Part shown: piece after piece, positions 10,452 through 61,123 of the stretch | Layout: every line of letters starts with the position of its first letter | Position numbering within the stretch: position 1 is the first letter of the stretch | Origin: Candidatus Zixiibacteriota bacterium | Lineage (GTDB): Bacteria > Zixibacteria > MSB-5A5 > UBA10806 | DNA length: 64,000 nt | Direction of reading: 5' to 3' | NCBI GenBank assembly: GCA_020344055.1 | Contig: CP070813.1 | Coordinates: 230,358 to 294,357, forward strand | The notes under the pieces: generated by a model | The model's database searches: none | What the model was told of the DNA's origin: nothing | Seen by the model: the letters and a program-made list of their open reading frames with translations, nothing else | Made by a program: the position numbers and the translations under genes

Positions 10452-10523
10452 GTTGCCAAGCAGGCGCTTGGCAACCAAAGAAATAATCCCAAAATCCTGG
10501 TAACCAAGCGCTGCTTGGTTACC
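10452..10523. terminator. Two adjacent perfect palindromic hairpins between convergent glnS and the TonB receptor gene
   Basis: GTTGCCAAGCAGGCGCTTGGCAAC (10452..10475) and GGTAACCAAGCGCTGCTTGGTTACC (10499..10523); the second is an inverted variant of the first with compensatory stem changes. Confidence 0.6.
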
Positions 10524-10540
10524 AATAAAAAGTAATCACC

Positions 10541-25906: not shown

Positions 25907-26917
25907 ATGACACAGTCAATATTAAAACTTGATTCGGTCGATGTATCCGCATTGGAAAGCTATCGCGAGAAATTCGCCCTGGATGTATTAACCGGATTAT
26001 CGGAACCGCGAAAATCCATTCCCTCAATATATCATTACGATGCCGAGGGAAGCAGGTTATTCACTAAAATTACCGAGCTGCCGGAATATTATCCGACCAG
26101 ATGCGAGGTGGAGACACTTAAAAGAAACATAGGTCGATTCGCCGGTTATATGGAATCGGAAACCATAAACTTGATCGAATTCGGCCCCGGCGACGGCAGC
26201 AAGACCAGGATACTGGTGGAGTACTTCCTGAACAAAGGGCTGGCGTTCCAGTACATTCCCATTGATATATCCTTTTCAGCCCTCGACGATCTGCATCGGG
26301 CGTTTAAAAAATCCTATCCCAAACTGGAGCTCAAAGGGCTGGTGGCCGATTATTTCTCCGGAATAAAGTGGCTTAATAACGAGTATAACCGAAAAAACAT
26401 AGTCCTATTCCTCGGTTCGAACATAGGTAATTTCAATCAGGCAAAATCGAAACTGTTTTTGCGTAATTTATGGAATCACCTCAACGACGGCGATATCGTT
26501 ATAATAGGATTTGATCTCAAAAAGGATATCGATCTATTACTGAGAGCCTACAACGATTCCCAGGGTGTAACGGCTGAATTCAATCTCAACCTGTTACGCA
26601 GAATAAATCGGGAATTGGCCGGTGAATTCGACGTATCGAAATTCAGGTTTTTCGCCACCTACGACGTTTTCAGCGGCGCCATGGAGAGTTACCTGGTCAG
26701 TCTCGAAAAACAGGAAGTGATCATTGGCGAAATAGGAAGATCTTTTCATTTCGATCCCTGGGAGCCTATTCATACTGAGTATTCATACAAATACCTGGAA
26801 TCCGATATTCTCAACCTGGCGAAAAATACAGGTTTTATATTAAAAGAAAATCTTTATGACGAGAAAAAGTACTTTGTAAACTCTGTATGGGAAGTGTACA
26901 AGCCGCACGCCAGTTAA
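25907..26917 (+). CDS. egtD: EgtD-like L-histidine N-alpha-methyltransferase
   Basis: YHYDAEGSRLFTKITELPEYYPTRCE closely matches the EgtD hallmark (Y.YD..GS.LFE.I.ELPEYYPTR.E); SAM-binding EFGPGDGSKT; 336 aa. Confidence 0.8.
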   Translation: MTQSILKLDSVDVSALESYREKFALDVLTGLSEPRKSIPSIYHYDAEGSRLFTKITELPEYYPTRCEVETLKRNIGRFAGYMESETINLIEFGPGDGSKTRILVEYFLNKGLAFQYIPIDISFSALDDLHRAFKKSYPKLELKGLVADYFSGIKWLNNEYNRKNIVLFLGSNIGNFNQAKSKLFLRNLWNHLNDGDIVIIGFDLKKDIDLLLRAYNDSQGVTAEFNLNLLRRINRELAGEFDVSKFRFFATYDVFSGAMESYLVSLEKQEVIIGEIGRSFHFDPWEPIHTEYSYKYLESDILNLAKNTGFILKENLYDEKKYFVNSVWEVYKPHAS

Positions 26918-26924
26918 AGTAATA

Positions 26925-29900
26925 ATGAGCATCGCCGAAAAATACGCCGGAAAAGAGCGCAGAGCCCTCTGCGGAATCTGTCCCGCAGGTTGCTGGGTGA
27001 AGGTCAAATACGATAAGGATGGGAAATTATCGGAGGTTCGCGCCGACGATAGCTCCGAGCTGGGAATGATCTGCAAGCTGGGCGAGCATTCCGCCGATAT
27101 CGTATATTCGGAACACCGCCTGAAATATCCCCTGAAAAGAAAAAGCCCTAAGGGCACCTATGAATTCGAACGGATTTCCTGGGATGAGGCCTATGATATA
27201 ATAGTCGAAAAATTGAATGCGCTTAAATCTCAATTCGGCCCCGAATCAACATGTATATACACCGGCAGGGGAAGTTTCGAGCTTGCCTTATGCGATATCT
27301 TTCAGCCGGCCGGTGTAGCCGTTTCCTCGGCCTCCAGCGTACTGTTTCCCTTCGGATCGCCTAACACCATGGGCGTGGGAGCGCTCTGTTACGTGGCCTT
27401 TGCCATGATCGCCCCGCACGTAACAATGGGGGGTATGCTGATCGATATGTACTCCGATATTGAAAACAGCGATCTAATCGTGGCTTGGGGCGCCAACCCC
27501 GCCACCGACTGCCCGCCGCTGGATCTCAAGAGAATCCTGGCAGCCCGCGATCGGGGAGCTGAGGTGGTAGTGATAGACCCCCGCAGAACCAGAACGGCTA
27601 AAATGACCGACGCCGAATGGGTTCCTGTCCGCCCGGGTACTGACGGCGCTCTAGCCCTGGGAATGTGCAACGTGCTTATAGAAGAAGAGCTTTACGACGA
27701 CGATTTCGCCGGGAACTGGACCGTCGGTTTCGATGATTTCGTAAGATACGTTCAGCATTATCGCCCGGAAGTGGTGGAAAAGACTACCGGTGTGCCAGCG
27801 GATACGGTTGTAAAGCTCGCCAGGAGAATCGCCGGTTCCAACGGCGCCTCTCCCGTTATGTACAGCGGCCTCGAATACAGCGACAGCGGGGTGCAGGCTA
27901 TCCGTGCCACCATGGTGCTGTGGGCGTTAGCGGGACAGCTTGACGTCCCCGGCGGGCGTTGCTTCAGTATGAGGCAAAATCAATTTCCTCTTAACAAAAG
28001 CGGGCATATACCGAATCCTGATCTTAAAAAAGCGCTGGGCAGAGATAAATTCCCGGTTTACAGTTCCTATCGCGGCGAATCGCATGCCATAGTCCTTCCC
28101 GATTCGGTGATACATGGAAAACCTTATAAGATCAGATCGCTAATTATGCATGGCGCTTCCATTACTACTTCCTGGCCGGAACCGCACATCTGGAAAGAAA
28201 CTTTAAACGCCCTCGATTTCCTGGTCTGCATCGACCGGCAACTTACCGCCGACGCCACTTACGCCGACATCGTTCTGCCCGCCACCACCATGTACGAGAT
28301 CGAATCGTACATGACCTACGGCCCGATTTTCAGAATAAGAGAAAAGGTGATCGAGCCGGTCGGCGAGGCAAGAAACGATTTCGTCATAATGGCCGAACTT
28401 GCAAAACATCTCGGCTACGGCCACCTATATCCCCAAAATGAAGAAGAATTATTGAATAAGGTATTGGAAAATTCCGGTTTTACTCTGGAACAGGTACGAG
28501 AAGCCGGTGGCGAAGTACAAGCCCCTACCGTTATGAACCAGTATAAAAAGTGGGAGAAGGGACAACTAAGACCGGATGGTAAGCCAGGATTTGATACACC
28601 TACTGGCAAATTCGAAATAGCCTCGACGATACTGGAAGAACATGGTTATGAGCCCTTGCCGGTATACACTGAACCTGCCGAAAGCCCGCAATCGCGGCCC
28701 GATATGACCGGGAAATATCCACTGGTTTTCAACTCCGGTTCCAGGGTAACGACCGACTTCCGCACCCAGCATCACGGGATACCGTCGTTATACAAACAGC
28801 GGCCCGAACCGACCGTTACCATAAATACACAGGATGCTAAAGAAAGAGATATCAAAACCGGCGATCTCGTTACAATCAAGACCGCCCGCGGACAGGTCGA
28901 TTTGAGAGCGTATGTAACGGATGATATTGTAATGGGCGCCATCGACGCCAACATGGGCGGTGGCGGTCCCGTGGGCCCGGAGGCCTGGCAGAAATGTAAC
29001 ATAAACAATCTCACCGATCTTCAGAGATATGACCCCATATCCGGCTTCCCGGTTTACAAGGCATTGTTATGCGACGTGGTAAAGGCCGGGGTTGCATCCA
29101 ATAAAGTGGTTATCGATTCGGGAGAGGATGGCACGGTAAAAGAATCCAAAAGGATGAAAAAAGAAATGCCCTTGCGCCGCGTCTATCTCGATCATAACGC
29201 CACCACCTATCTCGATCCCGAAGTGCTCAAGGTGATGACCGAATTTATGGAAAATGGTTTCGGTAATCCCTCCTCTATTTACCAGGAGGGACGCAAAGCC
29301 AGGGATGCCCTTGAAGCGGCCCGGCGGAGTATGGCCCAGCTTCTCAATTGCACCGCCCGGCGAATCATCTTCACCGGCGGCGGTTCCGAGGCTAACAACC
29401 TCGCCATCAAGGGAGCGGCATTTGCCAATTGGAATGCCAATAGACATATTATAACATCTGCCATCGAGCATCCTGCGGTGCTCAACGCCTGCAAATGGCT
29501 GGAGAAATTCGGCTTCGAGGTAACATATCTTTCGGTAGATAATACCGGTTTGATAAGCCCGGAGGATTTCGAGAAGGCTATCAAACCCAACACCGTCCTC
29601 GCCACCATCATGCTGGCCAATAACGAGACCGGCACCATCCAGCCTATAAAGGAGCTGGCGAAAATCGCCCATGAAAAATCGATCCTGTTTCATACCGACG
29701 CTACCCAGGGTATCGGGAAGATTCCTGTCGATGTAACAGATCTGGATGTCGATATGCTCTCCATGTCGGGGCACAAGCTTTACGGGCCGAAAGGTGTCGG
29801 CGTATTTTATATAAAATCCGGTCTCGAAATCGATCCCCTCATTCACGGCGGCAAGCAGGAACGGGGCCAGCGCGCCGGTACCGAAAACATGGTAAATATA

Positions 29901-30332
29901 GTGGGGATGGGAAAAGCGGCCGAGATAGCGGTGCAGAAGCTTCCGGAGATGGATAAGCTGCGAAAGATGAGGGATAAGCTGGAACAGGGTATAAGAAAAC
30001 TAGTACCCGACGTCAGGCTCAACGGCCACGAAACTGAAAGATTACCAAACACCTTGAATCTCACCCTCCCCGGCATGCGGGGCGAATCGGTTACCCTAGC
30101 TCTCGATCAAAGAGGCATTTCCATATCGTCCGGTTCCGCCTGCAGATCCGGCTCGCCTAAACCGTCTCACGCTCTGCTCGCCATGGGCCTGAGCGAGGAC
30201 GACGCCCACTGCGCTATAAGATTATCACTGGGCCTTAAAAACACCGAGGACGATATCGATTACGCTCTCAGGCAGTTCGGGGCGGTCATCAAAGACGATA
30301 AAAGCTCGGTGCGGTTTATACCGTGCAGGTAG
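26925..30332 (+). CDS. Metallopterin-dependent ergothioneine synthase-like fusion: Mo/W-bisPGD oxidoreductase module (aa 1 to approx 740) + NifS-like cysteine desulfurase module (aa approx 748-1135)
   Basis: Single uninterrupted 1135-codon ORF. N-terminus has the CGICPAGC Fe-S cysteine motif and molybdopterin-oxidoreductase and molybdopterin-dinucleotide-binding-like regions. From nt approx 29166 the sequence is a class-V aminotransferase (YLDHNATTYLDPEV, PLP-lysine SGHKLYGPKG, active-site SSGSACRSG). Starts 7 nt after egtD. Confidence 0.75.
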   Translation: MSIAEKYAGKERRALCGICPAGCWVKVKYDKDGKLSEVRADDSSELGMICKLGEHSADIVYSEHRLKYPLKRKSPKGTYEFERISWDEAYDIIVEKLNALKSQFGPESTCIYTGRGSFELALCDIFQPAGVAVSSASSVLFPFGSPNTMGVGALCYVAFAMIAPHVTMGGMLIDMYSDIENSDLIVAWGANPATDCPPLDLKRILAARDRGAEVVVIDPRRTRTAKMTDAEWVPVRPGTDGALALGMCNVLIEEELYDDDFAGNWTVGFDDFVRYVQHYRPEVVEKTTGVPADTVVKLARRIAGSNGASPVMYSGLEYSDSGVQAIRATMVLWALAGQLDVPGGRCFSMRQNQFPLNKSGHIPNPDLKKALGRDKFPVYSSYRGESHAIVLPDSVIHGKPYKIRSLIMHGASITTSWPEPHIWKETLNALDFLVCIDRQLTADATYADIVLPATTMYEIESYMTYGPIFRIREKVIEPVGEARNDFVIMAELAKHLGYGHLYPQNEEELLNKVLENSGFTLEQVREAGGEVQAPTVMNQYKKWEKGQLRPDGKPGFDTPTGKFEIASTILEEHGYEPLPVYTEPAESPQSRPDMTGKYPLVFNSGSRVTTDFRTQHHGIPSLYKQRPEPTVTINTQDAKERDIKTGDLVTIKTARGQVDLRAYVTDDIVMGAIDANMGGGGPVGPEAWQKCNINNLTDLQRYDPISGFPVYKALLCDVVKAGVASNKVVIDSGEDGTVKESKRMKKEMPLRRVYLDHNATTYLDPEVLKVMTEFMENGFGNPSSIYQEGRKARDALEAARRSMAQLLNCTARRIIFTGGGSEANNLAIKGAAFANWNANRHIITSAIEHPAVLNACKWLEKFGFEVTYLSVDNTGLISPEDFEKAIKPNTVLATIMLANNETGTIQPIKELAKIAHEKSILFHTDATQGIGKIPVDVTDLDVDMLSMSGHKLYGPKGVGVFYIKSGLEIDPLIHGGKQERGQRAGTENMVNIVGMGKAAEIAVQKLPEMDKLRKMRDKLEQGIRKLVPDVRLNGHETERLPNTLNLTLPGMRGESVTLALDQRGISISSGSACRSGSPKPSHALLAMGLSEDDAHCAIRLSLGLKNTEDDIDYALRQFGAVIKDDKSSVRFIPCR

Positions 30333-31695: not shown

Positions 31696-32898
31696 ATGTA
31701 CGGGAAGATCAAAGAAGACCTCCAGAGAGAACTCCAGGCCACGCGCGACGCCGGCCTTTATAAAGAGGAACGGGTAATCATGACCCCGCAGGGAGCCGAG
31801 ATAAAGGTCAAGACCGGGCAGACGGTCCTTAACTTCTGCGCTAACAACTACTTAGGGCTATCATCGCACCCCAGACTGATCGAAGCCGCCCACAAAACGC
31901 TGGACGAGTGGGGTTACGGGCTGTCGTCGGTGCGGTTTATATGCGGTACCCAGGATATTCACAAACAGCTCGAGGCCAAGGTCTCGGAGTTTCTGGGCAC
32001 CGACGATACCATCCTCTACGCCGCCTGTTTCGATGCCAACGGCGGGGTATTCGAACCGTTTTTCGACGCTGAATGCGCCATCATCTCTGATGCCCTCAAC
32101 CACGCTTCCATCATCGACGGGGTCAGGCTATGTAAAGCCCAGCGGTTCCGTTACGCCAACAACGATATGAACGAGCTCGAGGATTGCCTGAAAAAAGCCA
32201 AGGATCTCAAGTACCGTATCGTCTGCACCGATGGGGTCTTCTCCATGGACGGCAACATCGCCAACCTGAAAGGTATTTGCGACCTGGCCGAAAAATATGA
32301 CGCCATGGTCCTGGTGGACGACTCCCATGCTACCGGTTTCATGGGCAAGACCGGCCGCGGCACCCACGAATACAACGGCGTCATGGGGCGGGTCGATATC
32401 ATAACTACCACCTTCGGTAAGGCGCTCGGCGGCGCGTCAGGAGGATGCACATCCGGTCATAAGGAGATAATCGAGTGGCTTCGTCAGAAATCGCGGCCGT
32501 ACCTGTTCAGCAATACTCTCGCTCCTTCGGTTACCGGCGCCACATTGGAGATGTTCAACATCCTGATGGCCACCACCGAGCTTCGCGACAAGCTGGAAAG
32601 CAACCAGCGCTATTTCCGCAAGGCCATGACCGAAGCCGACTTCGATATCAAGCCCGGCGATCATCCCATCGTTCCCATCATGTTCGGCAAGTTCGAAAAC
32701 GACGCCAAGCTGGCGCAGGATTTCGCCAAAGACATGCTGGCCGAGGGGATTTACGTTATCGGATTCTCCTACCCCGTGGTCCCTAAGGGCCAGGCCCGTA
32801 TCCGTGTGCAGCTCTCCGCCGCCCACAATAAAGAGCACATCGACAAGGCCATCGAGGCGTTCATCAAGATCGGCAAAAAGCATAAGGTGATAGAGTAA
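31696..32898 (+). CDS. kbl: Glycine C-acetyltransferase (2-amino-3-ketobutyrate CoA ligase)
   Basis: Near-colinear match to E. coli Kbl ([15 protein letters not shown]...[16 protein letters not shown]...[31 protein letters not shown]); 400 aa. Confidence 0.9.
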
Positions 32899-32906
32899 AC
32901 AATTTC

Positions 32907-33003
32907 GTGGTGTCGGCTCGCCTGAGCCGACACCAAAAATGAGGTCGGCAGTTTATCTGCCGACGCGCTGTTATAGGGACAGATCATCGGTCTGTCCTTT
33001 TTA
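32907..33003 (+). terminator. Three consecutive hairpins after kbl, the last a GC stem + T-run intrinsic terminator
   Basis: GTGTCGGCTCGCCTGAGCCGACAC, GTCGGCAGTTTATCTGCCGAC, then GGGACAGATCATCGGTCTGTCCTTTTT. Confidence 0.6.
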
Positions 33004-33080
33004 TATAATTTCCATTTTTATTATATTTATTTGAGATCTTTTCTGGACTAGGACTGTAAAACCATTTATAACATACATTC
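32967..33080 (+). repeat. Intergenic cassette copy A (terminator hairpin + conserved leader/promoter-like block) upstream of paralog 1
   Basis: GCTGTTATAGGGACAGATCATCGGTCTGTCC ... GAGATCTTTTCTGGACTAGGACTGTAAAACCATTTATAACATAC; compare copies at 34258..34372 and 35531..35565. Confidence 0.6.
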
Positions 33081-33099
33081 CTTAACAAGGAGAAAATTA

Positions 33100-34182
33100 A
33101 TGAGCGTATTTTCCTCATGCAGGTTACTTATAATATCAAGCTTTACTATTTTGGCATCAATTTTACTATTCCCTTCAACGGGTGAATGCCAGGTAATTTC
33201 CGGTCATTCGCGATTTTTACTGGTGGCCCCCGACGCTCGCGGCAAAAGCCTGGCCGACGGCGGTAGCGTATTCTCAAAGAGCGCGGCCTCGGTATATTAC
33301 AACCCGGCGCTCCTTGTAACCGGCTATCAGTTTTCGGCGGAGGTAAATTACTGTAAGCATTTGCCGCTTCTTTCAGATGTTTCAATTAGTAATTATTTCA
33401 TTTCAAAAAGCCTTAATGACTGGGGCTATTTTGGTATAGGATATTCAAGGCATGATTATGGAGGTGGAGAACGACTGGACGAATATTATCGAACGATTAA
33501 ACCTTACGCATATTCCCTGGGTATCTGGTATGCGATTTCATTCGATCCTTATAATTCGTGTGGAATAGGCGTCAAGTTTATAAAGATCCATGCGGGGCGA
33601 TACAGAATAGATTCTTCGACGCTCGAGGCCTCGTCAATGGCAATTGATTTCGGGATGCTATCAAGAAATCACCTCCCGCAGGCGACCTGGCAAAATGACG
33701 AGATATTTTACCCCCATATTAACAGGCTTTTTAAGGTAGAGAGGGATAAGGGATTTTCCTTCGGGATTTCGTTCTCAAATCTTGGGAGGGATCTTGAATA
33801 TGAACATTATCCTTATTCCGAATCCATTCCGAAACGGCTTCGCGTCGCCGCCGGATACCAGGCGGTGGATTCGGAGCCGGTGGGATTGCGTTTGACGGTT
33901 GACGCCACCAGAGTGCTGATCGATATGGATGATTCGTTCAGAGAAGAATGGAGTGAGGTTGCCTGGTCATACGGATTGGAATCGACTTTCTATTATATCG
34001 TTCATTTCCGCTTCGGCAGGTTATTGGATCGGGGCGATCACCAGCGATACAATACCATCGGATTCGGTGTCGGACCGGAGTGGCTGAGCTTGGATTATTC
34101 GTATGTGTTAGACAGCGATGATCGATGGAATCGAAGCGGCGAAGAATATTCGTTTTCCCTTAGATGTAATATTTCACCATAA
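33100..34182 (+). CDS. Signal-peptide protein, paralog 1 of a tandem triplicated family (predicted outer-membrane beta-barrel-like; possibly PorV/PorQ-type T9SS-associated, unverified)
   Basis: 360 aa; shares with paralogs 2 and 3 the blocks PDARGKSL..GGSVFS, YYNPALLVT, LGIWAA.SFDP.NS.G.GIK, FDFG.LSRNHLP, ERD.GFSFG.S, AGYQA.DSEPVGLRL.VDAT, WSYGLE.TFYY, RFNT.GFG.GPEW.SLDYS, EEYS.S.RCNISP. Confidence 0.5.
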   Translation: MSVFSSCRLLIISSFTILASILLFPSTGECQVISGHSRFLLVAPDARGKSLADGGSVFSKSAASVYYNPALLVTGYQFSAEVNYCKHLPLLSDVSISNYFISKSLNDWGYFGIGYSRHDYGGGERLDEYYRTIKPYAYSLGIWYAISFDPYNSCGIGVKFIKIHAGRYRIDSSTLEASSMAIDFGMLSRNHLPQATWQNDEIFYPHINRLFKVERDKGFSFGISFSNLGRDLEYEHYPYSESIPKRLRVAAGYQAVDSEPVGLRLTVDATRVLIDMDDSFREEWSEVAWSYGLESTFYYIVHFRFGRLLDRGDHQRYNTIGFGVGPEWLSLDYSYVLDSDDRWNRSGEEYSFSLRCNISP

Positions 34183-34257
34183 GTCATGTAGCTCGGTAGC
34201 TTGCTACCGCCATCGGTATGGTTCCCAAGCGGCGCTTGGGAACCAGGAATATATAAT

Positions 34258-34372
34258 TTGTAGGGACAGATCACCGATCTGTCCTTATTTAAATTAAAAT
34301 ACACCTACTCAAAATATAAATGGGATCTTTTCTGGATTATAACTATAAAACCATTTATAATATAATTTCCTG
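34258..34372 (+). repeat. Intergenic cassette copy B upstream of paralog 2
   Basis: TGTAGGGACAGATCACCGATCTGTCC ... GGGATCTTTTCTGGATTATAACTATAAAACCATTTATAATATAA; near-identical to copy A in both sub-blocks. Confidence 0.6.
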
Positions 34373-34388
34373 AGCAAAGGAGAATCAG

Positions 34389-35498
34389 ATGGGTGTATCT
34401 TTTCCAGGCCGGCGTTACCTAATAGCAGGTTTTACTATTTTTGCGTCAATCACGCTATTGCCGGCATACGGGCAAAGCCAGGACGGCCATATTGAGGCTC
34501 GATTTCTCTTAATACCTCCCGACGCCCGCGGCAGAGCTCTCGGCGAGGGCGGCAGCGTCTTCTCCAAAGGGGCGATTTCCGCCTATTATAACCCCGCACT
34601 TCTGGTTACCAGCGAGCTGTTTTCCGGTGAGTTCAATTACAGCGATTACGCGCCCGATTTCGTTGACGGCATGTCCACCAAAAATATCTTCATATCAAAT
34701 AATATAGATGATATGGTTTTTTGCGCCCTGGGATATACTAGATTTGACTTTTCCAATGGTTTAGATATACCCGAGTATGAGTCTGAATCTTATGACTATT
34801 CGCTGGGTATCTGGGCAGCGGTTTCATTTGACCCTCATAATTCATTGGGGGCGGGAATCAAATATATTAAAAGGTATCACCAATCATCTTATATGGGATC
34901 GGATTATGTATCATCGCGTGAAGGATCCTCCTACGCGTTCGATTTCGGCCTGCTATCCCGGAATCACCTGCCGGTTACCACCTTATACAACGATACGATT
35001 TATTACCCTGTCTTACACAAGCTGTTTAAAGTCGAGAGAGACAGGGGATTTTCATTCGGTATCTCCCTGGCTAATGTCGGTAAGGCAATGACATTCTTCG
35101 AAAAAGATAGAGCCGATCCAATTCCCAGAAATTTCCGATTCGCCGCTGGATATCAGGCGATCGACACCGAACCTGTAGGCCTGCGATTGACCCTCGACGC
35201 CACCAAACTGCTTATCGACGTTGATGATTCCTTTAAAGAGGAATGGAACGAAATCGTCTGGTCGTACGGCCTTGAAGCTACGTTTTATTATATTTTACAT
35301 TTTCGCCTTGGACGGCTATTTGACCGCGATAGCTACCAACGGTTCAATACCGTCGGATTCGGTATCGGCCCGGAGTGGCTCAGCCTGGATTATTCCACGA
35401 TTCTGGGAGATACCGATGATTGGCGCTGGAACAGAAGAGCTGAAGAATATTCGATCTCAATTAGATGTAATATTTCGCCGAATGATTTAAACTTGTAG
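34389..35498 (+). CDS. Signal-peptide protein, paralog 2 of the tandem family
   Basis: 369 aa; same conserved blocks as paralog 1 (about 50% identity by eye), preceded by the same intergenic cassette. Confidence 0.5.
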   Translation: MGVSFPGRRYLIAGFTIFASITLLPAYGQSQDGHIEARFLLIPPDARGRALGEGGSVFSKGAISAYYNPALLVTSELFSGEFNYSDYAPDFVDGMSTKNIFISNNIDDMVFCALGYTRFDFSNGLDIPEYESESYDYSLGIWAAVSFDPHNSLGAGIKYIKRYHQSSYMGSDYVSSREGSSYAFDFGLLSRNHLPVTTLYNDTIYYPVLHKLFKVERDRGFSFGISLANVGKAMTFFEKDRADPIPRNFRFAAGYQAIDTEPVGLRLTLDATKLLIDVDDSFKEEWNEIVWSYGLEATFYYILHFRLGRLFDRDSYQRFNTVGFGIGPEWLSLDYSTILGDTDDWRWNRRAEEYSISIRCNISPNDLNL

Positions 35499-35530
35499 GT
35501 CGGCCCCGCGGAACGCGGGGCTGCCGACAC

Positions 35531-35565
35531 GCTGTTATTGGGACAGATCATCGACCCGTCCTTTA
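35531..35565 (+). repeat. Intergenic cassette copy C (terminator part only) upstream of paralog 3
   Basis: GCTGTTATTGGGACAGATCATCGACCCGTCC, nearly identical to the copy-A hairpin; the leader block has diverged. Confidence 0.5.
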
Positions 35566-35674
35566 TTTGTATCCATATAAATAATAATCGCTTGCAATAT
35601 ACAATCATAAACTCTATTATGGTTTAGAATTGAAAATACAATGCAAGCATCATCCGCACCGAAGGGGAAAGGCC

Positions 35675-36799
35675 ATGAAAGTATTATCGAGCTATCTCAA
35701 AAGCAAATATGTTAGAGCCGGTATAATCGTTATTGCATCAGTCGCATTATTGCCTTCGATTGGGCAGTGTCAGGCACGGTATACAAATCCGCAATTCTTA
35801 TTGATAGCCCCGGACGCCCGGGGCAAAAGCCTGGGCGGAGGCGGAAGCGTGTTTTCCATAGGCGCCATTTCCGCATATTATAATCCCGCGCTTCTTGTGA
35901 CCAGCGAGGAGTTTTCGGGAGAGTATAATTATTGCGGTTATATGCCGAAAATCGCTGACGATTTATTCCCGAAAAATATCTACCTTTCTTCCAATTACAG
36001 GGATTTGCTCTATTTTGGAATGGGCTATTCCAAATTTAGTTACGGGGAACAGGAACGGATGGACGAATTGGGAAATCTGTTGGGTAGATTCGAATCATAT
36101 GAATCTGCTCTGGGTTTCTGGGCCGCCATTACCTTTGATCCGGACAACTCATTTGGAGCCGGAATTAAATACATTGAAAGCCATCTGGCGGAAGTCGGGG
36201 CCGGGTCGGAAAGAGGTAGAGGCGATGCCTCGACCGTTGCTTTTGATTTCGGCATATTGTCTCGAAACCATCTTCCCGAAGCAACCTGGCAGAATGAAAA
36301 GATATTTTATCCTGATCTCCGCAGGCTTTTCGGGGTGGAAAGAGATTTGGGATTTTCATTCGGTGTGTCGATCGCGAACCTGGGCGAAGGTCTGGAATAT
36401 ATCGATGAGGACCAGTCCTATCCTCTCCCAAAACGACTTCGTTTAGGCCTCGGATACCAGGCTATCGATTCGGAGCCGGTCGGATTACGATTGGCCGTCG
36501 ACGCCACCAAAATATTGGTTTATATGAATGACCCCTTCGAAAGAGAATGGTACGAAATCGTCTGGTCGTACGGCTTGGAATCTACCTTCTATTATCTGTT
36601 TAGTATCCGATTCGGGCGTATGTTAGACCGCGATGGCCATCAGAGATTTAATACTATCGGATTCGGTATAGGGCCGGAATGGTTCAGTCTGGATTATTCC
36701 CGCGTTCTGGATAGCGATATCGACTGGAATCGAAGAGGCGATGAATATTCAATTTCGATCAGATGCAATATCTCCCCGAAGACTTTTAAGAACTTTTAA
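35675..36799 (+). CDS. Signal-peptide protein, paralog 3 of the tandem family
   Basis: Start placed at MKVLSSY (signal peptide) inside ORF 35630..36799; same conserved blocks; ends in ...KTFKNF (aromatic C-terminus, as expected for barrel OMPs). Confidence 0.5.
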   Translation: MKVLSSYLKSKYVRAGIIVIASVALLPSIGQCQARYTNPQFLLIAPDARGKSLGGGGSVFSIGAISAYYNPALLVTSEEFSGEYNYCGYMPKIADDLFPKNIYLSSNYRDLLYFGMGYSKFSYGEQERMDELGNLLGRFESYESALGFWAAITFDPDNSFGAGIKYIESHLAEVGAGSERGRGDASTVAFDFGILSRNHLPEATWQNEKIFYPDLRRLFGVERDLGFSFGVSIANLGEGLEYIDEDQSYPLPKRLRLGLGYQAIDSEPVGLRLAVDATKILVYMNDPFEREWYEIVWSYGLESTFYYLFSIRFGRMLDRDGHQRFNTIGFGIGPEWFSLDYSRVLDSDIDWNRRGDEYSISIRCNISPKTFKNF

Positions 36800-36856
36800 T
36801 AACAGAAATCTGCAGGGTACAGCTAGCCAAGGCCAAGCGGTATCATTAGAAAAATA

Positions 36857-37362
36857 TTATTTCCCCGGCGGCGTATATACTACCCCGTGCTCGAGATAAA
36901 ACTTGAGCAGGGTCAGCGCCTCACCCCAGCAGCAGGCGCACTCCAGGATCATGGCGCGGGCCTCGGAGGTATCAGGATAACCGGATTCGGTCAATGTAAC
37001 AACCGTGCCGCCGTGTTTCCCCTCCAGCGCCAATTCCACCGTCGTGAAATAACTTTCCCCACCGGGTACCATTCGAACGCGAAACTATTCGGCCTCTCGG
37101 CTTTGACGACCCTGCATTCGGTCTCAGCGCTGTAGAAATCCTGTCCCCAATCCTTCCAGCGGAACCACATCCTCCCGTCCGGTCTTGGATCAATCTCGGT
37201 GGCATGGGTGAAAAACGTGTTCCAGTCATCGCCGGATGTAATAGTATAGAAAACCTTCTCCGGCGGCGCAGCGATAAATACTCTATGCTTGATATCTTTT
37301 CCGAATTGTCCTGACATATCTTCCTCCATAAATCTGTGAATAGGCGAATCTAATTGAAACAT
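36857..37362 (-). pseudogene. SRPBCC (AHSA1/polyketide-cyclase-like) gene interrupted by a frameshift near 37060..37080
   Basis: ORF 36991..37362 encodes an SRPBCC N-terminal approx 100 aa (RVFIAAPPEKVFYTITSGDDWNTFF...AFEW); the C-terminal beta-strands and helix continue in another frame as ORF 36857..37072 (ESYFTTVELALEGKHGGTVVTL...WGEALTLLKFYLEHG). Confidence 0.5.
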
Positions 37363-37491
37363 AAATCGATATCAATATGTAATGTTAATATGGAGATAGA
37401 AAGAAACAATAGGATTGACTATTTCAAAAAACCATTTATCTTAAAATAAGCAAATTAAACTTATCTTCAACGCCTTTACAAGAGGTCCAAA

Positions 37492-39186
37492 ATGAGAAAA
37501 ATCTACTATCCTAAAACGTTCTTTACGGCTATCATCTTTTTGCTCGTGGCGATAACGGCTTTTGCCCAGTGGCCGGTTAGCTCCGACAGTAACATGATCA
37601 TATGCGATCGGTTCGGCGACCAGTGCATACCGAAAATCGCCGCCGCATCCGATGGCGGCTGCTATGTCAGCTGGTTCGATCATTCCTCCGGTAATTACGA
37701 TGTTTACATGCAGCGGTTGAACGGCAACGGCGTGATTCAATGGGATTCAGGTGGAATGTTGATAAGCAACGAAACGCAGGAAACCTGGCTCACCGATTAC
37801 GATATGACGGTCGATGGTGACGATCATGCCATAGTGGTGTTCAACGATACCAGGGCTGGCGGCGACTGGGATATCTACGCCTATCGAATTAGCCCGAATG
37901 GAGATTTTATCTGGGGTACGAGCGGCCTGACACTTTCCGATAATGTCAACTTCGAGGCCAATGCGGTGGTTACTGTAACATCATCCGGTAATTTCGTCTT
38001 CGCCTGGCAGGATGAAATCTCGGTCTATCTTCGAAAAGTCGATCCCCAGGGGACCGACATGTGGTCGCCGCATACGATCAATATCACATCAACATATGGT
38101 ACGGTGAAGCCTCGAATCGTCTCGGCCGAGAGCGACGACGTTATCGTGGCGGTAATGCAGGCCAGCGGCCCGAACTACTGGGACCCTCAACATCTATATG
38201 CTCATAAGTTCGATTCTCTTGGCGTTGAACAATGGGGAAGCGGAGGAGTAGCTATCAGCACCGCCGGGGGAATCGCTCCTTATATGGATTATGATCTTAC
38301 TTCTGACGGTGACGGGGGAGCATATTCTTTCTGGTATGATGACAGAGATATGAGTCTCAATGCATACGTCCAGCATATTCTTTCCGACGGCGCGATGGCC
38401 TGGACGGCCAACGGCGTTCAGGTTTCACTTGCCGCCGGAGAACTGCAGATGTACCCCTCCCTGGTCCGCTTCTCATCCTCCAGCGAAGTGCTGGTATTCT
38501 ACCTGGCAACCGATATAAACCAGAACCTGAATGGCGTCCACGGGCAGAAACTCGACTCTCTGGGCACCCGGCAATGGGGCTCGAACGGAATCGTTTTCGT
38601 ACCTATGACTAACCAGACCAGAAGCCATATTTCCGCCCAACCTCAACCCGAAGGAGCCGTCATAGTCTATAAAGAATACCCGCCCGGCAGCGCTATTCAA
38701 AGCTATATAAAAGCCACCAGGGTCGATATGGACGGCAATCAGGTATGGAGTACATCGCCGGTCGATATGTGCTCGAACCTGAGTGAAAAGATACGTGTCC
38801 CGACGACAGTTAATGATTCAGGCATGGTGATTGCCGCCTGGGATGATGGAAGGTTAGATCCCAACGGCGACATCTATCTGCAGAATATCAATGCCGACGG
38901 TTCCCTGGGACCGCCATCAGGTTCCTCCGGATGCGAATATGTGGTAGGCGATGTTAACAACAGCGGCGCCTATAACGGCCTCGACATAACTTATGGTGTG
39001 GCGTTTTTCAAAGGAGGCGCCGCCCCTCCTTACCAATGCGAATGTACGCCGGGCAACTTCTGGTATGTCGCGGGTGACGTCAATAACAGCTGCTCGTTTA
39101 ACGGGTTGGATATTACCTACGGCGTGGCGTACTTCAAGGGCGGCGCCGACCCGATACCATGTGATGATTGCCCGCCGGTAGAATAA
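37492..39186 (+). CDS. Secreted protein with C-terminal tandem dockerin-like Ca-binding repeats
   Basis: Signal peptide; C-terminus has two copies of GDVNNSGxxNGLDITYGVAxFKGGA (dockerin type-I-like). No T9SS CTD. Confidence 0.5.
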   Translation: MRKIYYPKTFFTAIIFLLVAITAFAQWPVSSDSNMIICDRFGDQCIPKIAAASDGGCYVSWFDHSSGNYDVYMQRLNGNGVIQWDSGGMLISNETQETWLTDYDMTVDGDDHAIVVFNDTRAGGDWDIYAYRISPNGDFIWGTSGLTLSDNVNFEANAVVTVTSSGNFVFAWQDEISVYLRKVDPQGTDMWSPHTINITSTYGTVKPRIVSAESDDVIVAVMQASGPNYWDPQHLYAHKFDSLGVEQWGSGGVAISTAGGIAPYMDYDLTSDGDGGAYSFWYDDRDMSLNAYVQHILSDGAMAWTANGVQVSLAAGELQMYPSLVRFSSSSEVLVFYLATDINQNLNGVHGQKLDSLGTRQWGSNGIVFVPMTNQTRSHISAQPQPEGAVIVYKEYPPGSAIQSYIKATRVDMDGNQVWSTSPVDMCSNLSEKIRVPTTVNDSGMVIAAWDDGRLDPNGDIYLQNINADGSLGPPSGSSGCEYVVGDVNNSGAYNGLDITYGVAFFKGGAAPPYQCECTPGNFWYVAGDVNNSCSFNGLDITYGVAYFKGGADPIPCDDCPPVE

Positions 39187-41456: not shown

Positions 41457-41750
41457 ATCGTTTTATTAGGAGCGATTTCGCCCCCAGTCAAGATTTTATA
41501 ATACCGACCCCTCCAAAAATGGCGATGAAAATGCAATTTTATCAGATATAATTATCAAAAGACCGGGAACGCCGGCCCAGGTATAGCACCTTCACCATAT
41601 TTTTCCCGTGCCTGTCGCGGAATTATTTTGCCGCCGATACGCAACCAATTGCGATTCAACGTGATACAATGTCGTAGCATTTTGAAACAATCTCGCTTAT
41701 CGGGAGCCGATTTTGCGGATAATTCCCTTAAACGTCACAGGGGAGGCACC

Positions 41751-42512
41751 GTGATTTACAGTTCTCATACAAATTCGCTCCGCCACATTACCGACTTGAT
41801 CAAAGCCAAACTTGAGCTGGGAAAATCCTTTGAAAAACTCTCTTCGGGGATGAAAATCAACAGGGCTTCCGACGATCCTGCCGGCCTGGTAATATCGGAA
41901 CAAATGCGGGCAAGGATAGGGGAAATATCGCAGCTAATTAGAAACATCGAATATCAAAACAATAAATACACCGTCGCTGAGAGCGGCCTCGCCGCCATGC
42001 AGGTCAATCTGCAGGAGATAAGAAACGTGGCTCTGGCGGCGTCCGACGAGGGGGCGGTAACGGACGATATGCGCACCGCCTATCAAACCGTCGTGAATAG
42101 AAATATCGAGGGTTTTAATAACATTATTAAAAATACAAGCTTCGGTACCCAGGCCCTTTTAGATGGCTCCGAGGGTTCCGTGGCGGATATAAAAGAGCTG
42201 GATAATCTCGATATCACCGACCCTGAACAGGCCCGTCTGGCGGTGGGTATTATAGATGAGAAAATTAACGAGATTCTTAATCTCAGGGGAGAAATAGGCG
42301 CCAAACAGAAATACCAGTTCGGATCGCAAAAATCGAACCTTCAAACGGAATTAATCAATCTAACGGCTGCGGAATCGAGCATTCGCGATACTGATATGGC
42401 TCGAGAATATGCAAATATGGTGTCATACGAAATCAAGTTGAAAGCCGGGATGTCTCTTCTGGCTCACAGACACCTGTTATCCGGATTTTTAGTCAACATA
42501 ATCGCCAGATAA
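41751..42512 (+). CDS. Short flagellin-domain protein (N- and C-terminal flagellin helices, approx 253 aa)
   Basis: LSSGMKINRASDDPAGLVISEQMRARI matches the flagellin N-domain signature and ESSIRDTDMAREYANMVSYEIKLKAGMSLLAH the C-domain signature. Start proposed at GTG 41751, preceded by GGGGAGG RBS; the longer ORF from 41628 lacks an RBS. Confidence 0.6.
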   Translation: MIYSSHTNSLRHITDLIKAKLELGKSFEKLSSGMKINRASDDPAGLVISEQMRARIGEISQLIRNIEYQNNKYTVAESGLAAMQVNLQEIRNVALAASDEGAVTDDMRTAYQTVVNRNIEGFNNIIKNTSFGTQALLDGSEGSVADIKELDNLDITDPEQARLAVGIIDEKINEILNLRGEIGAKQKYQFGSQKSNLQTELINLTAAESSIRDTDMAREYANMVSYEIKLKAGMSLLAHRHLLSGFLVNIIAR

Positions 42513-44624: not shown

Positions 44625-47111
44625 TTATCTCACACCTCCGGCAGCCTGTTCAAGAAGTCTCCTGTACGCCAATCGTTTATCGCGCCTGACGATCATCCTG
44701 AAAACGCCAAACGCTACTATAACCGCCGGCGCCAGCAGAATGGTAAAAATCCTCCAGAGTATCTTTGAAAGCGGAGAGGTCTCCTTCAGGAAACGAACTT
44801 GAATAATCTTGCTCCTGATATGAAGCAGATCCTCGCTCAAGGCGAATCCCTCAATGGCCTTTAACAACAGATCTTCATGAGACGGTTTCTGACCCCGGAA
44901 CCCGGCCTCCGGTATGAATTGATCGGAAAAAATCTCGTTGTTGCCTATAAACATTAATCTGCCCGGAGCCGGAGTCACGGATTCAACGTCAGAGAGAGCT
45001 TCGACTGAATCGGGTAGATCCTGCCATTTCGGCGGAGGCTGATTCTCGTATGGATCCGGGAACTGCCCCTCCAGGATCACCGCCAGAGGCTGACGCCCGA
45101 TTTTCTCCTGGTAGTCGGGATTGGCAACATCGCCCGCCAACGGCAATCCTGAAAATTCGGCCTCCCAGGTATCGGAGCTGGAGGTCATCAATACCGAAAG
45201 CTTGAGTCCGAGCTCGTCGACTTTCGTAGAATCGATCTTTATGGGGGAACCCCAGAGATAAACCATGGGGCCCAGATTGGCGGTAAACGCGTAATCCTGG
45301 TTGATATTTTCCGGGGAGATCCGGATCTGCACCGGCGATTGAACGTCAAGGTTCACCGGAACCGTAAGAAAACCGAACGACTGCTGGGCTTGGACTCCGA
45401 CCACCTGATTCTGCGCGTCCATCATGATTTTGTCACCCAGCGAGATACCGTAGTTCGAAATCAATCCGTTGATTCCGGGATCGGCCTTGGCCGGCATAAT
45501 CATGACGTCTCCGCCCCGACCGGGACTGTAATTAAACCTGTACGCCTGTGACGCGATTATCACGTCCTTGCCGGCGTAAAGCTGTCTGGCGATCTCATAC
45601 TTTTGCCTGTCCGAAAGGCTTTTGGGTTCCACCACCAGTATCGCCTTGACGTCATCCGGCAGAGTCTCTTTCGAGGACAGCTCTATCCGGCTTAAATTGT
45701 AGCCGAGCTGCCTGTAAGTATTCGCGAGGTTTTGATACCTGTCGTTCTTTTCGGGTATCTGCTGTCCCATCGTTTGCATAAACTGGCGCATTCTGGGATC
45801 GTTATATCTGGGATCCATCGGCTCATAGGGAGCCACAAGGGCGATAACCGGGGGAGCTTCCTGGGTCATCTTGAATATTATCGAACAGATATCGTATTCG
45901 AGACTGGGCAAACTCGAGGGCATAACCTGGGGAATGACTTCGTCCGGCTTATCCAGATAAGATATCGATATCGATGAAAAGACTTTTTTAATGCCGACGG
46001 CGTCCCGTTCAGTGGTTCGCAGAGTAAAAGGGGCAATGCCCTTTTCCGTCAAGCTCTGGGCAAGTTCCTCGTTTCCGGTCGGATCGATGACCTCGTATTT
46101 TATTTTGCCGGAGATCTTTTTGAATTCCTCGAGCTTGTCGGTGATATTCCTCTCGATATCCTTCATGCCGGGCGGCATTTTCTCTTCCGGCGTAACATAA
46201 TACCTGATGGTCACGGTGGTCTTGAGGTCCTCGATTATATTTTTCGCGGAATCGCTTATGGTATAGATCTTGCCTTCGGTAGCATCCCACCGTCCCAGCG
46301 GCAGCTGATAGACTATTATATTGAACATAGCCGCCACGGCGAGCATAACCACGGCCGCGCCGGTAAACGTAAGATCGGCCTGCCGTCTCATCCTCTGCTC
46401 CACCGTCAGGGCGTTCAGAACCAGGAATACCGCCGTGAAGGACAAAAAGTACACGATATCGTTGATGCTTATCACGCCCTTATACATGGTCTCGAAATGC
46501 CCCAGCGACCCGACGGACCTCTGAAGAAAGGTGCCCAGTCCGCCGATCCACGAATCCAGCTGCGCCGCGATGGGAAGCCAGCCCAGAAGGTGCAGCAACA
46601 TCGCTCCTATCACAGCCATCACCCAAGCCGTTATCTGGTCTTTAAAAAGCCCCGAAAAAAACAGCCCAAGTGAGGTATACAAACCTCCCAGAAACAGCAA
46701 TCCGAGATATCCGCCGAATATGGGGCCGCCGTCGGGATCTCCCAGGATTATAATCGCTATCATAATCGGTAACGTACCCAGCAGGTACAATACGTAGAAT
46801 CCCAGGCCCGCGAAAAACTTGCCTAAAACCAGATGCATCGATTTTACCGGAAGCGATTGCAATAGGGCAATCGAACCCGATTTCTGCTCCTCCGCCCAGA
46901 GCCTCATGGTGATAGCGGGAAGGAAAAACAGCATCAACCACGAATTTATGGAGAAAAAGTCCCTCATCTCGGCAACGCCGGCGGCAAAGAAGAAAAAGAA
47001 ACTGTACAATCCGGAGCAAACCGCCAGTATCGCGACTATGAATACATAAGCGATGGGGGAATTGAAATAGGATGAAAATTCTCTTCTAAAAATAGTCATT
47101 ACGTTTTTCAT
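44625..47111 (-). CDS. Fusion of ABC-2-type permease (GldF-like) and GldG-like gliding-associated ABC auxiliary component
   Basis: 828 aa: N-terminal approx 240 aa with 6 TM helices (ABC-2 permease), then a large periplasmic region and a C-terminal TM helix, as in GldG. Confidence 0.6.
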   Translation of the reverse strand: MKNVMTIFRREFSSYFNSPIAYVFIVAILAVCSGLYSFFFFFAAGVAEMRDFFSINSWLMLFFLPAITMRLWAEEQKSGSIALLQSLPVKSMHLVLGKFFAGLGFYVLYLLGTLPIMIAIIILGDPDGGPIFGGYLGLLFLGGLYTSLGLFFSGLFKDQITAWVMAVIGAMLLHLLGWLPIAAQLDSWIGGLGTFLQRSVGSLGHFETMYKGVISINDIVYFLSFTAVFLVLNALTVEQRMRRQADLTFTGAAVVMLAVAAMFNIIVYQLPLGRWDATEGKIYTISDSAKNIIEDLKTTVTIRYYVTPEEKMPPGMKDIERNITDKLEEFKKISGKIKYEVIDPTGNEELAQSLTEKGIAPFTLRTTERDAVGIKKVFSSISISYLDKPDEVIPQVMPSSLPSLEYDICSIIFKMTQEAPPVIALVAPYEPMDPRYNDPRMRQFMQTMGQQIPEKNDRYQNLANTYRQLGYNLSRIELSSKETLPDDVKAILVVEPKSLSDRQKYEIARQLYAGKDVIIASQAYRFNYSPGRGGDVMIMPAKADPGINGLISNYGISLGDKIMMDAQNQVVGVQAQQSFGFLTVPVNLDVQSPVQIRISPENINQDYAFTANLGPMVYLWGSPIKIDSTKVDELGLKLSVLMTSSSDTWEAEFSGLPLAGDVANPDYQEKIGRQPLAVILEGQFPDPYENQPPPKWQDLPDSVEALSDVESVTPAPGRLMFIGNNEIFSDQFIPEAGFRGQKPSHEDLLLKAIEGFALSEDLLHIRSKIIQVRFLKETSPLSKILWRIFTILLAPAVIVAFGVFRMIVRRDKRLAYRRLLEQAAGGVR

Positions 47112-47113
47112 AG

Positions 47114-61059: not shown

Positions 61060-61096
61060 CTTGAATGTAAAAAAGTAGGGGTCAGGCATGCCTGAC
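61060..61096 (-). terminator. Hairpin downstream of T9SS cargo gene 61124..62122
   Basis: AGGGGTCAGGCATGCCTGACCCCT perfect palindrome. Confidence 0.5.
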
Positions 61097-61123
61097 CCCT
61101 ACAAGTAACCATCTTACATCATA

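Follow-up and report, generated by a model that had tools for sequence, protein, structure and literature searches.

Three PorV/PorQ-family genes in tandem

We analysed a 64,000-nt stretch of DNA (hereafter the window; positions 230,358 to 294,357 of contig CP070813.1, assembly GCA_020344055.1) from the 3.83-Mb contig of a Candidatus Zixiibacteriota metagenome-assembled genome (MAG). Near its centre lie three tandem genes, here called copies A, B, and C, that encode proteins of the PorV/PorQ family, and each is preceded by a spacer that carries conserved palindromes. The genes and their upstream neighbour are as follows.

31696..32898, + strand: upstream neighbour, 2-amino-3-ketobutyrate CoA ligase-like aminotransferase (kbl-like), an open reading frame (ORF) that is the conserved left anchor of the locus
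33100..34182, + strand: copy A, PorV/PorQ-family outer-membrane barrel, 360 aa (P0016); NF033709 and PF19572; clade A
34389..35498, + strand: copy B, PorV/PorQ-family outer-membrane barrel, 369 aa (P0017); NF033709; clade B
35675..36799, + strand: copy C, PorV/PorQ-family outer-membrane barrel, 374 aa from ATG (P0001); NF033709, AlphaFold2 (AF2), and Foldseek; clade C

The three genes have the same orientation and align over their full length (57-58% identity, 74% mean column identity), and a repeat finder returned a period of ∼1290-1300 nt that runs through the coding and intergenic parts alike. A preliminary description of this stretch, made from its letters alone, had listed three co-oriented paralogs of 360, 369, and 389 aa; the coordinates and the orientation hold, but copy C is likely 374 aa long. 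The 389-aa version is the maximal ORF from a TTG at 35630, whereas the ATG at 35675 is preceded by a GGGGAAAGG ribosome-binding site and gives the 374-aa form found in the NCBI entry (P0001, 100% identity), so this ATG is the likely start of copy C. The conserved blocks reported at that stage (DFGxLSRNHLP, GYQAxDxEPVGLRL, R(F/Y)NTxGFGxGPEWxSLDYS, and EYSxSxRCNISP) were all recovered. The family had been left unassigned, but NCBI already names all three proteins "PorV/PorQ family protein"; they are new members of a known family that automatic annotation had named correctly beforehand.

The gene order kbl, PorV-like, (SRPBCC), 564-aa protein, Zip, and beta-helix recurs in related metagenomic contigs (numbered L001, L002, and so on below), and an orthologous 400-aa Aminotran_1_2 gene stands before the PorV-like genes in L002, L004, and L007.

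The paralogs are PorV-type proteins modelled as 14-stranded barrels

All three proteins pass the NCBIfam PorV/PorQ family model NF033709 (132.9, 123.6, and 150.8 bits for A, B, and C, respectively; cutoff 90) and Pfam PF19572 (35.7, 32.3, and 44.4 bits; gathering threshold 27). All three fail the PorV equivalog NF033710 (95.2, 79.7, and 108.2 bits; cutoff 250), in which true PorV proteins reach 480 (P0041) and 509 bits (P0044), and they also fail the PorQ equivalog NF033711 (31.1, 35.4, and 54.4 bits; cutoff 220). With at most 17 bits in the PorP/SprF model TIGR03519 (13.9 for A, 16.6 for B, and no match for C; cutoff 90.55), the PorP/SprF alternative offered in the preliminary description falls away.

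A search of the PDB with a profile of 33 homologs returned one match only, F. johnsoniae PorV (6h3i_F), over the full length and with E = 1.4e-76. The AF2 model of copy C has 14 main strands (pLDDT 74, pTM 0.73), and a Foldseek search with this model placed the PorV chains 8gl6_F and 6h3i_F from SprA translocon complexes on top (TM-score 0.70-0.75), whereas FadL and TodX reached only ∼0.45. The FadL/Toluene_X family PF03349 gave no match at E <= 1, and no FadL chain appeared in the PDB profile search. In a database of 5.8 billion proteins, the nearest relatives outside the clade were canonical Bacteroidota PorV proteins. From these results, we conclude that A, B, and C are PorV-type outer-membrane barrels with a predicted 14-stranded FadL fold, as the earlier guess of a PorV/PorQ-like barrel had it, and we count their family membership and modelled fold as established.

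Comparison with F. johnsoniae PorV (LptO; chain F of 6H3I and 8GL6) shows homology over the full length, with a 14-strand barrel and an N-terminal hatch motif (FLLxxxDARxxGLG...NPA) common to PorV and the three paralogs, although the identity is only 22-27%. The F. johnsoniae protein has a loop insertion of ∼50 residues that the Zixibacteria clade lacks, whereas the latter has a conserved insertion of its own, LSRNHLP...YP...LFxVERD. This insertion accounts for most of the block DFGxLSRNHLP..YP..LFxVERDxGFSFG (window ∼36245-36370, residues ∼191-232 of C), which is the most conserved one in the clade and maps to a predicted periplasmic turn. The gene arrangement also differs, in that this Zixibacteria genome has three old paralogs that do not stand beside porU, compared with one gene in Bacteroidota. 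PorQ, the PorZ anchor of the attachment complex, shares the superfamily model NF033709 with A, B, and C, but their nearest outside relatives are PorV and not PorQ. The likeness to PorP/SprF proteins, the shuttles for type-B C-terminal domains (CTDs) (PMC12618676), is conceptual only: there are several paralogous carrier barrels per genome, some of them linked to cargo, and these are not homologous to A, B, and C at the family level.

In A, B, and C, a nearly invariant Gln comes directly after the position at which the signal peptide is predicted to be cleaved (G-E/Q-C/S-Q, residues ∼28-33), and Q33 is kept in at least 90% of the 33 family sequences. We take this residue to be reminiscent of the 'Q-rule' of pyroglutamate N-termini in Bacteroidetes.

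The three copies are old and under purifying selection

Contig L004 carries three copies in the same order, each the one-to-one ortholog of its counterpart in the window (77% identity for A, 88% for B, and 71% for C), compared with 52-58% between paralogs. In a neighbour-joining tree, the sequences form three clades, each of which joins one window copy to sequences from other samples, and single-copy homologs of ∼40% identity branch below the triplication. Clade A includes window A and the first L004 copy; clade B holds, besides window B and the second L004 copy, the orthologs in L005 to L007 (73% identity to window B) and L024 (71%); and the orthologs in clade C are 70-71% identical to window C. 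Between paralogs, the number of synonymous substitutions per site (dS) is saturated at 2.0-2.3, and the ratio of non-synonymous to synonymous rates (omega) is 0.14-0.16; between orthologs, dS is 0.45-1.4 and omega 0.13-0.17, and over all comparisons omega stays at 0.13-0.18. Because there are one-to-one orthologs elsewhere, three clades, and saturated synonymous sites, the duplication is old, and all three copies are under purifying selection. The paralog substitution rates and the clades thus speak against the "recent segmental duplication" of the preliminary description. Copy number, which it had proposed to check by synteny, does vary, with 1 to 3 PorV-like genes in related contigs.

The B-type copy stands alone in L005 to L007 and L024, and the C-type copy stands alone in L001 to L003; this variation is explained by later loss or recombination. 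In L024 (3834-4871; CP070742.1, Zixibacteria bin38), the B-type ortholog lies directly after kbl, aligns only over residues 1-284, and is labelled 'partial' by NCBI. The spacer before it mixes features of the window kbl-A and A-B spacers, which is compatible with copy A having been lost when two cassettes recombined.

Predicted loops and the type IX secretion context

When barrel topology was assigned from general barrel rules, positions conserved across the three clades made up 60% of the hatch, 40% of the strands, 40% of the predicted periplasmic turns, and 7% of the predicted extracellular loops, the last of which are hypervariable both within and between clades. By analogy with PorV, the paralogs thus appear to differ mainly on the face that contacts cargo. 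This loop divergence would suit carriers with differing cargo preference and would equally suit ordinary diversification of surface loops.

The window contains type IX secretion system (T9SS) cargo, as had been suspected. At least five proteins pass the type-A sorting-domain model TIGR04183, and they are encoded by the following genes.

1132-2484, - strand: type-A T9SS cargo gene (TIGR04183)
18662-20752: type-A T9SS cargo gene (TIGR04183)
57301-58623, - strand: type-A T9SS cargo gene (TIGR04183)
61124-62122, - strand: type-A T9SS cargo gene (TIGR04183)
62274-63734, - strand: type-A T9SS cargo gene (TIGR04183)

In the solved system, the site at which the PorV-type barrel docks is the lateral opening of SprA, and the CTD of the cargo is bound within the pore by the extracellular loops of the barrel (PMC10994853). 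For Bacteroidota, it is reported that a single PorV handles every type-A cargo protein (PMC12618676). By analogy, A, B, and C would each dock on a SprA-type translocon, their extracellular loops would bind the C-terminal sorting domain of cargo, and they would carry this cargo to, or anchor it on, the cell surface. Because all copies fail the PorV equivalog and no T9SS machinery besides A, B, and C (porU, sprA, or others) was found within the window, this role is argued from homology alone. A literature search found no paper on Zixibacteria with a T9SS.

The barrels could instead be FadL-like channels or general surface porins that are not T9SS carriers and whose copies serve to vary the loops exposed at the surface, for instance as a way to escape phages or predators. 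The hypervariable loops with their few clade-specific sites (7 only), the failed PorV equivalog cutoff, the lack of adjacent T9SS machinery, and the change in copy number from 1 to 3 among relatives are all compatible with such a role. PorV is, however, much closer to the paralogs than FadL both in sequence (E = 1e-76 for the sole PDB match, and no match to the FadL/Toluene_X Pfam family) and in fold (TM-score 0.70-0.75 versus 0.45), and a genome rich in type-A CTD cargo needs a PorV-type carrier. Variable loops are also expected on a cargo-binding face (PMC10994853), and we consider the porin explanation quite unlikely.

Palindromes and promoter blocks in the spacers

The hairpin sequence GGGACAGATCAYCGRYCYGTCC occurs exactly three times in the 64 kb (at 32976, 34263, and 35540; 0 expected), once upstream of each copy, in agreement with the preliminary description. 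The features of the three spacers are listed below, where REP stands for repetitive extragenic palindrome.

32908..32964, + strand: two accessory palindromes after kbl, TGGTGTCGGCTCGCCTGAGCCGACACCA and GGTCGGCAG...CTGCCGAC (fold, spacer z = -6.8; orthologous spacer alignment)
32975..33005, + strand: REP-like hairpin AGGGACAGATCATCGGTCTGTCCTT then TTTATAT, probable kbl terminator (terminator-like scan passed, 11 pairs)
33035..33092, + strand: A/B-type promoter block GATCTTTTCTGGACT (-35-like TGGACT) ... TAAAACCATTTATAAC (-10-like TATAAC) (conservation)
34195..34245, + strand: accessory palindromes GGTAGCTTGCTACC and family-2 element TGGTTCCCAAGCGGCGCTTGGGAACCA (fold)
34260..34294, + strand: GTAG-tagged REP-like hairpin GTAGGGACAGATCACCGATCTGTCC then TTATTTAAAT, probable terminator of A (13-bp stem)
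34324..34382, + strand: A/B-type promoter block TGGATT ... TATAAT (conservation with the A block)
35495..35528, + strand: GTAG-tagged nested palindrome GTAG-GTCGGCCCCGCGGAACGCGGGGCTGCCGAC, its tag overlapping the B stop codon (fold)
35540..35571, + strand: degenerate REP-like hairpin GGGACAGATCATCGACCCGTCC (two stem mismatches) then TTTATTTGTA (sequence match, fold)
35592..35620, + strand: C-type promoter candidate TTGCAA, 17-nt spacer, TATTAT (sigma-70 scan, 9/12 matches)

Each spacer contains two or three stem-loops. The hairpins upstream of A and B have stems of 11 to 13 bp, and the folding of these two spacers (z = -5.6 to -6.8) shows that the other upstream hairpins described earlier are real and stable. 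Folding revealed no comparable hairpin 3' of copy C, and the repeat unit is therefore hairpin, promoter, and gene. No RNA family was matched when positions 32000-38000 were searched against Rfam at a permissive threshold.

Much of this layout is shared with L004. The post-kbl hairpin AGGGACAGATCATCGGTCTGTCCTT is kept there at the same position, and the second post-kbl palindrome, GGTCGGCAG...CTGCCGAC, is GTAG-tagged. The GTAG-GTCGGC...GCCGAC palindrome at 35495 differs from its L004 equivalent by one base, in the loop, and a GTAG-tagged palindrome of the same type lies upstream of A in L004. Where the window has GGGACAGATCATCGACCCGTCC, L004 has an intact hairpin followed by TTTTTTTG.

At four-fold degenerate sites, the paralogs are 35-42% identical (random expectation 26%), compared with 24/28 identical positions (86%) in the hairpin block of A and B and 43/51 (84%) in that of A and C. 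Similarly, the window and L004 share 85% identity over the B-C spacer, compared with 46% at the four-fold sites of C. Because it is far better conserved than four-fold sites, the cassette is under constraint and is not a decaying relic. As to covariation in the hairpin, nearly all copies are identical, and only L003 has a compensated pair (GAAC...GTTC).

The hairpin is a dispersed, REP-like element

When the exact hairpin sequence was scanned for with one genome per species, it was found at 18 genome loci. Nine copies are in the MAG of Ca. Tariuqbacter arcticus (phylum Electryoneota), most of them <100 nt from a contig end, embedded in a ∼110-nt repeat and in some cases paired tail-to-tail; three more loci are in Cloacimonadota MAGs, and a few are in further MAGs. 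The Zixibacteria chromosome CP070742.1 has one exact copy, which lies precisely upstream of the B-type ortholog. Apart from a Pseudomonas match inside an ORF, which is a chance coding match, every copy is intergenic, typically 48-170 nt after a stop codon, and most have no PorV-like gene nearby. This hairpin, (GTA)GGGACAGATCAYCGRTCTGTCC, is the last palindrome of each window spacer and is base-identical at unrelated intergenic sites of other phyla of the Fibrobacterota-Chlorobiota-Bacteroidota (FCB) group.

GGGACAG is preceded by the three bases GTA in most independent copies, and an unpaired GTAG head results. The form GTAG-GGACAGATC-N3-GATCTGTCC is present upstream of B, in both L004 copies, in L002 and L024, and in most copies from other phyla. 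With its REP-type head and its occurrence at unrelated intergenic sites and in other phyla, the hairpin is not the private relic of a duplicated segment that the preliminary description had implied.

A second palindrome family, TGGTTCCCAAGCGSCGCTTGGGAACCA, represented upstream of B, is dispersed over L004, L005, L007, L024, and L026. The B-C spacers of the window and L004 differ by an indel of 40 nt, which corresponds to exactly one palindrome of this family. In L026, a variant directly abuts a gene for a Y1 transposase of the REP-associated tyrosine transposase (RAYT) type. The RAYT equivalog NF047646 (cutoff 80) is passed by proteins of L028 (113.3 bits) and L026 (101.6 bits).

Some further observations concern these elements. 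The RAYT genes (L028 8215-8391 and 8453-8929; L026 16605-17132, - strand) lie 1-6 kb from a PorV-like gene, and L026 and L028 are deeper-branching contigs with a single-copy, pre-duplication PorV-like gene. In L028, a stretch of 59 aa that partially duplicates the N-terminus of the RAYT (93% identity) is encoded just upstream of the RAYT gene. Elsewhere in the window, the palindrome GTAGGGGTCAGGCATGCCTGACCCCTAC, with GTAG...CTAC at both ends, occupies 61075-61102 just downstream of the cargo gene 61124-62122(-), and two hairpins with a CCAAGCG..GCTTGG core (10452-10475 and 10498-10524) lie between convergent tRNA-synthetase and TonB-receptor genes.

REPs are palindromes of 20-40 bp with an unpaired GTAG tag that occur singly or in clusters and for which roles in termination and mRNA stabilisation have been proposed (PMC3733652). 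The window palindromes resemble the GTAG systems made up of REPs, bacterial interspersed mosaic elements (BIMEs), and RAYTs (PMC3733652, PMC2817692) in that they are 22-30 nt long, carry an unpaired 5' GTAG, are extragenic and clustered in spacers, and are polymorphic by indels of whole elements, with RAYT genes in related contigs. They differ in that GTAG REPs are usually species- or genus-specific, whereas the window hairpin is identical across phyla, which is unusual for REPs, and in its low copy number in Zixibacteria and its T-tract at the PorV locus. A survey from 2013 did not report GTAG repeats for the FCB group. Given its low copy number in Zixibacteria, its identity across phyla, and the lack of a RAYT gene in the window, the hairpin is better called REP-like than a proven REP.

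Probable terminators and separate promoters

At the PorV loci, a T-tract follows the hairpin in seven of seven copies (three in the window, two in L004, and one each in L001 and L024), compared with one (L016) of ∼10 other independent hairpin sites. The post-kbl copy passes the terminator scan (11 pairs followed by TTTATATAAT), and in L004 and L001 the hairpin at the orthologous position is followed by an uninterrupted run of seven T. At the PorV locus, the hairpin would serve as an intrinsic terminator of the preceding gene, and the hairpins before it would protect or stabilise the mRNA 3' end. We propose that a REP-type palindrome probably doubles as an intrinsic terminator at PorV loci.

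About 40 nt downstream of the hairpin, each gene would have a sigma-70-like promoter that is conserved and followed by a Shine-Dalgarno sequence; A and B share one promoter type, and C has another. The leader block GATCTTTTCTGGA...TAAAACCATTTATAA is common to A and B only, with 54/75 identical positions (72%) versus 35% at four-fold sites, and it is kept in window copies A and B, in the B-type copies of L005 and L024, and in part before copy A of L004. Read by eye, it consists of TGGAYT, a 17-nt spacer, and TATAAY, then the Shine-Dalgarno AAGGAG (33087-33092 for copy A, 34377-34382 for copy B). Upstream of C, the -35 context ATCGCTTGC is conserved in the C copies of L004 and L001. The preliminary description had assigned the leader block to every copy, which is correct for A and B, but the region upstream of C is different. 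On inspection by eye, we dropped the idea that the leader block is a sigma-54 or a Bacteroidetes-type promoter because spacing and consensus bases do not fit.

Because a hairpin and a conserved promoter are present at each, A, B, and C are probably transcribed separately in this genome. An independent terminator and promoter for every copy, as first proposed, is thus plausible, with a shared conserved block for A and B and a conserved promoter of its own for C, but not as the outcome of a recent duplication. An inverted repeat, GCTTGCA ... TGCAAGC, with arms ∼45 nt apart, brackets the C-type promoter (window 35590-35650) and is kept in L004 (7890-7975); possible roles are those of an operator pair and of a 5' structure.

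As an alternative to a terminator or REP, GGACAGATC-N3-GATCTGTCC could be an operator in the DNA at which a dimeric transcription factor binds and co-regulates the promoters downstream. In copy B and L004, it forms an inverted repeat with a perfect 9-3-9 layout; it lies at a fixed 103-152 nt upstream of start codons, and has a left arm that is 100% conserved next to a right arm that varies uncompensated in A and C; in addition, the L002 copy, 135 nt upstream of the gene start, has no T-tract. Against these points, the majority of copies follow a stop codon at a distance of 48-170 nt, in many unrelated contexts; one MAG has the element inside a dispersed ∼110-nt repeat that breaks contigs; and the unpaired GTAG head is typical of REPs (PMC3733652). 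The compensated GAAC...GTTC variant of L003 also fits a hairpin, though a symmetric operator would permit it too. On balance, we find the operator very doubtful.

We give almost no credence to a recent triplication of a unit of terminator, leader, and gene with the cassette as a leftover kept for independent expression, because the regular period (∼1290-1300 nt), the hairpin 103-114 nt upstream of each start codon, and the positions shared around it (43/51 nt for A and C) and in the promoter (54/75 nt for A and B) are outweighed by paralogs only 57% identical with dS saturated at 2.0-2.3, by one-to-one orthologs of each copy in other genomes, by the hairpin sequence at unrelated loci and in other phyla, by the absence of the A/B promoter block upstream of C, and by four-fold sites so near random that a neutral relic would have decayed.

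Neighbouring genes

Downstream of copy C, a gene at 37492-39186 (+) encodes a 564-aa protein with a signal peptide and a C-terminal region of ∼85 aa that contains two Cys-flanked dockerin-like repeats. The repeat GDVNNSxxxNGLDITYGVAxFKGG is kept in the L005 ortholog (5117-6811; 72% identity overall), and the match to Dockerin_1 has E = 0.79 only. In L001, an LVIVD/choice-of-anchor-B protein takes the place of this gene. Between copy C and the 564-aa gene lies a convergent SRPBCC/AHSA1-like gene (window 36862-37362, - strand) that is frameshifted near 37060, its C-terminal half (...TTVELALEGKHGGTVVTLTESGYPD...LEHGVVYTPPGK) running on in another frame. The L005 ortholog (4400-4960, - strand) has an in-frame stop instead (TLT*SGYPD). 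Since the lesions in the window and L005 are different, this suggests that the gene is decaying and does not contain a sequencing error.

The preliminary description had partnered the barrels with this downstream gene product as their cargo. Searches with hidden Markov models detected no T9SS sorting domain of type A or type B in the 564-aa protein, and with the disrupted convergent gene in between, the proposed partnership is not supported. The motif AAAACCATTTAT does recur at 37428, where a TTGACT-16-TATCTT promoter has its spacer and -10 within reach of the motif, the two overlapping. In the region upstream of the L005 ortholog, the -35 and -10 hexamers are kept but the motif is not (AGGAAATCAATTAT), and we therefore rejected shared regulation of the 564-aa gene through this motif.

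Upstream of kbl, an EgtD-type L-histidine N-alpha-methyltransferase gene (25907-26917, + strand; TIGR03438, 299 bits) is followed by a gene (26925-30332, + strand) for a protein of 1135 aa in which a molybdopterin oxidoreductase is fused to a class-V aminotransferase (cysteine desulfurase-like). The pair is kept just upstream of kbl in L004 (1-3879) and presumably resembles the metallopterin-dependent ergothioneine synthase of Caldithrix. A few kb downstream of the barrel genes are a flagellin gene (41628-42512, + strand) and a GldA/GldG-like ABC transporter (44625-48085, - strand; below the equivalog cutoffs). The genome combines flagellar genes with abundant T9SS cargo.

Discussion

Taken together, the above results make it likely that this locus is an ancient PorV-type triplet whose members are separated by REP-like, probably terminating hairpins and are transcribed from separate promoters. 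Several observations weigh against parts of this interpretation. For the proteins, these are the failed PorV equivalog cutoff, the lack of other T9SS machinery within the window, and the small number of clade-specific fixed residues, which give no clear signature of functional specialisation. For the REP-like assignment, they are the GTAG head, which has degenerated to ATAG upstream of A and to ATTG upstream of C, the single exact hairpin in the 3.74 Mb of CP070742.1, a low copy number that is atypical for REPs, and a tblastn search that found no RAYT gene in the window. For termination, the hairpin upstream of C folds poorly (two stem mismatches, z = -1.3), and the T-tracts that follow the copies after A and B are interrupted, so that these copies fail a simple terminator scan. 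For separate transcription, the A/B hexamers were read by eye and lie below the scan threshold (the sigma-70 scan gave 12 sites versus 9.5 expected from shuffles, which is not an enrichment, and the A/B promoter was not among them). In L004, moreover, A and B are 41 nt apart with neither hairpin nor promoter block between them and are probably co-transcribed, so that separate transcription is not universal.

A further-reaching proposal is that three PorV-type carriers replace the universal PorV of Bacteroidota and split cargo into routing classes, with a GTAG-REP family domesticated as terminators or insulators; we regard this as unlikely. If it were true, routing by divergent loops would be a type-A counterpart of the specialised PorP/SprF shuttles, the cargo classes would be type-A or non-canonical ones, such as those with dockerin-like tails, and a GTAG-REP family common to FCB candidate phyla would keep the three carriers independently expressed.

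The presence of GTAG-tagged palindromes and RAYT genes in FCB candidate phyla is a small extension of REP biology. It also carries a warning to those who read genomes, since conserved hairpins between tandem paralogs may be dispersed elements and not relics of duplication. Our results leave the current understanding unchanged. T9SS biology has been worked out almost wholly in Bacteroidota, and a lineage outside this phylum with three long-kept PorV-type barrels is a natural test case, which could show whether carriers partition type-A cargo and which loops set their specificity.

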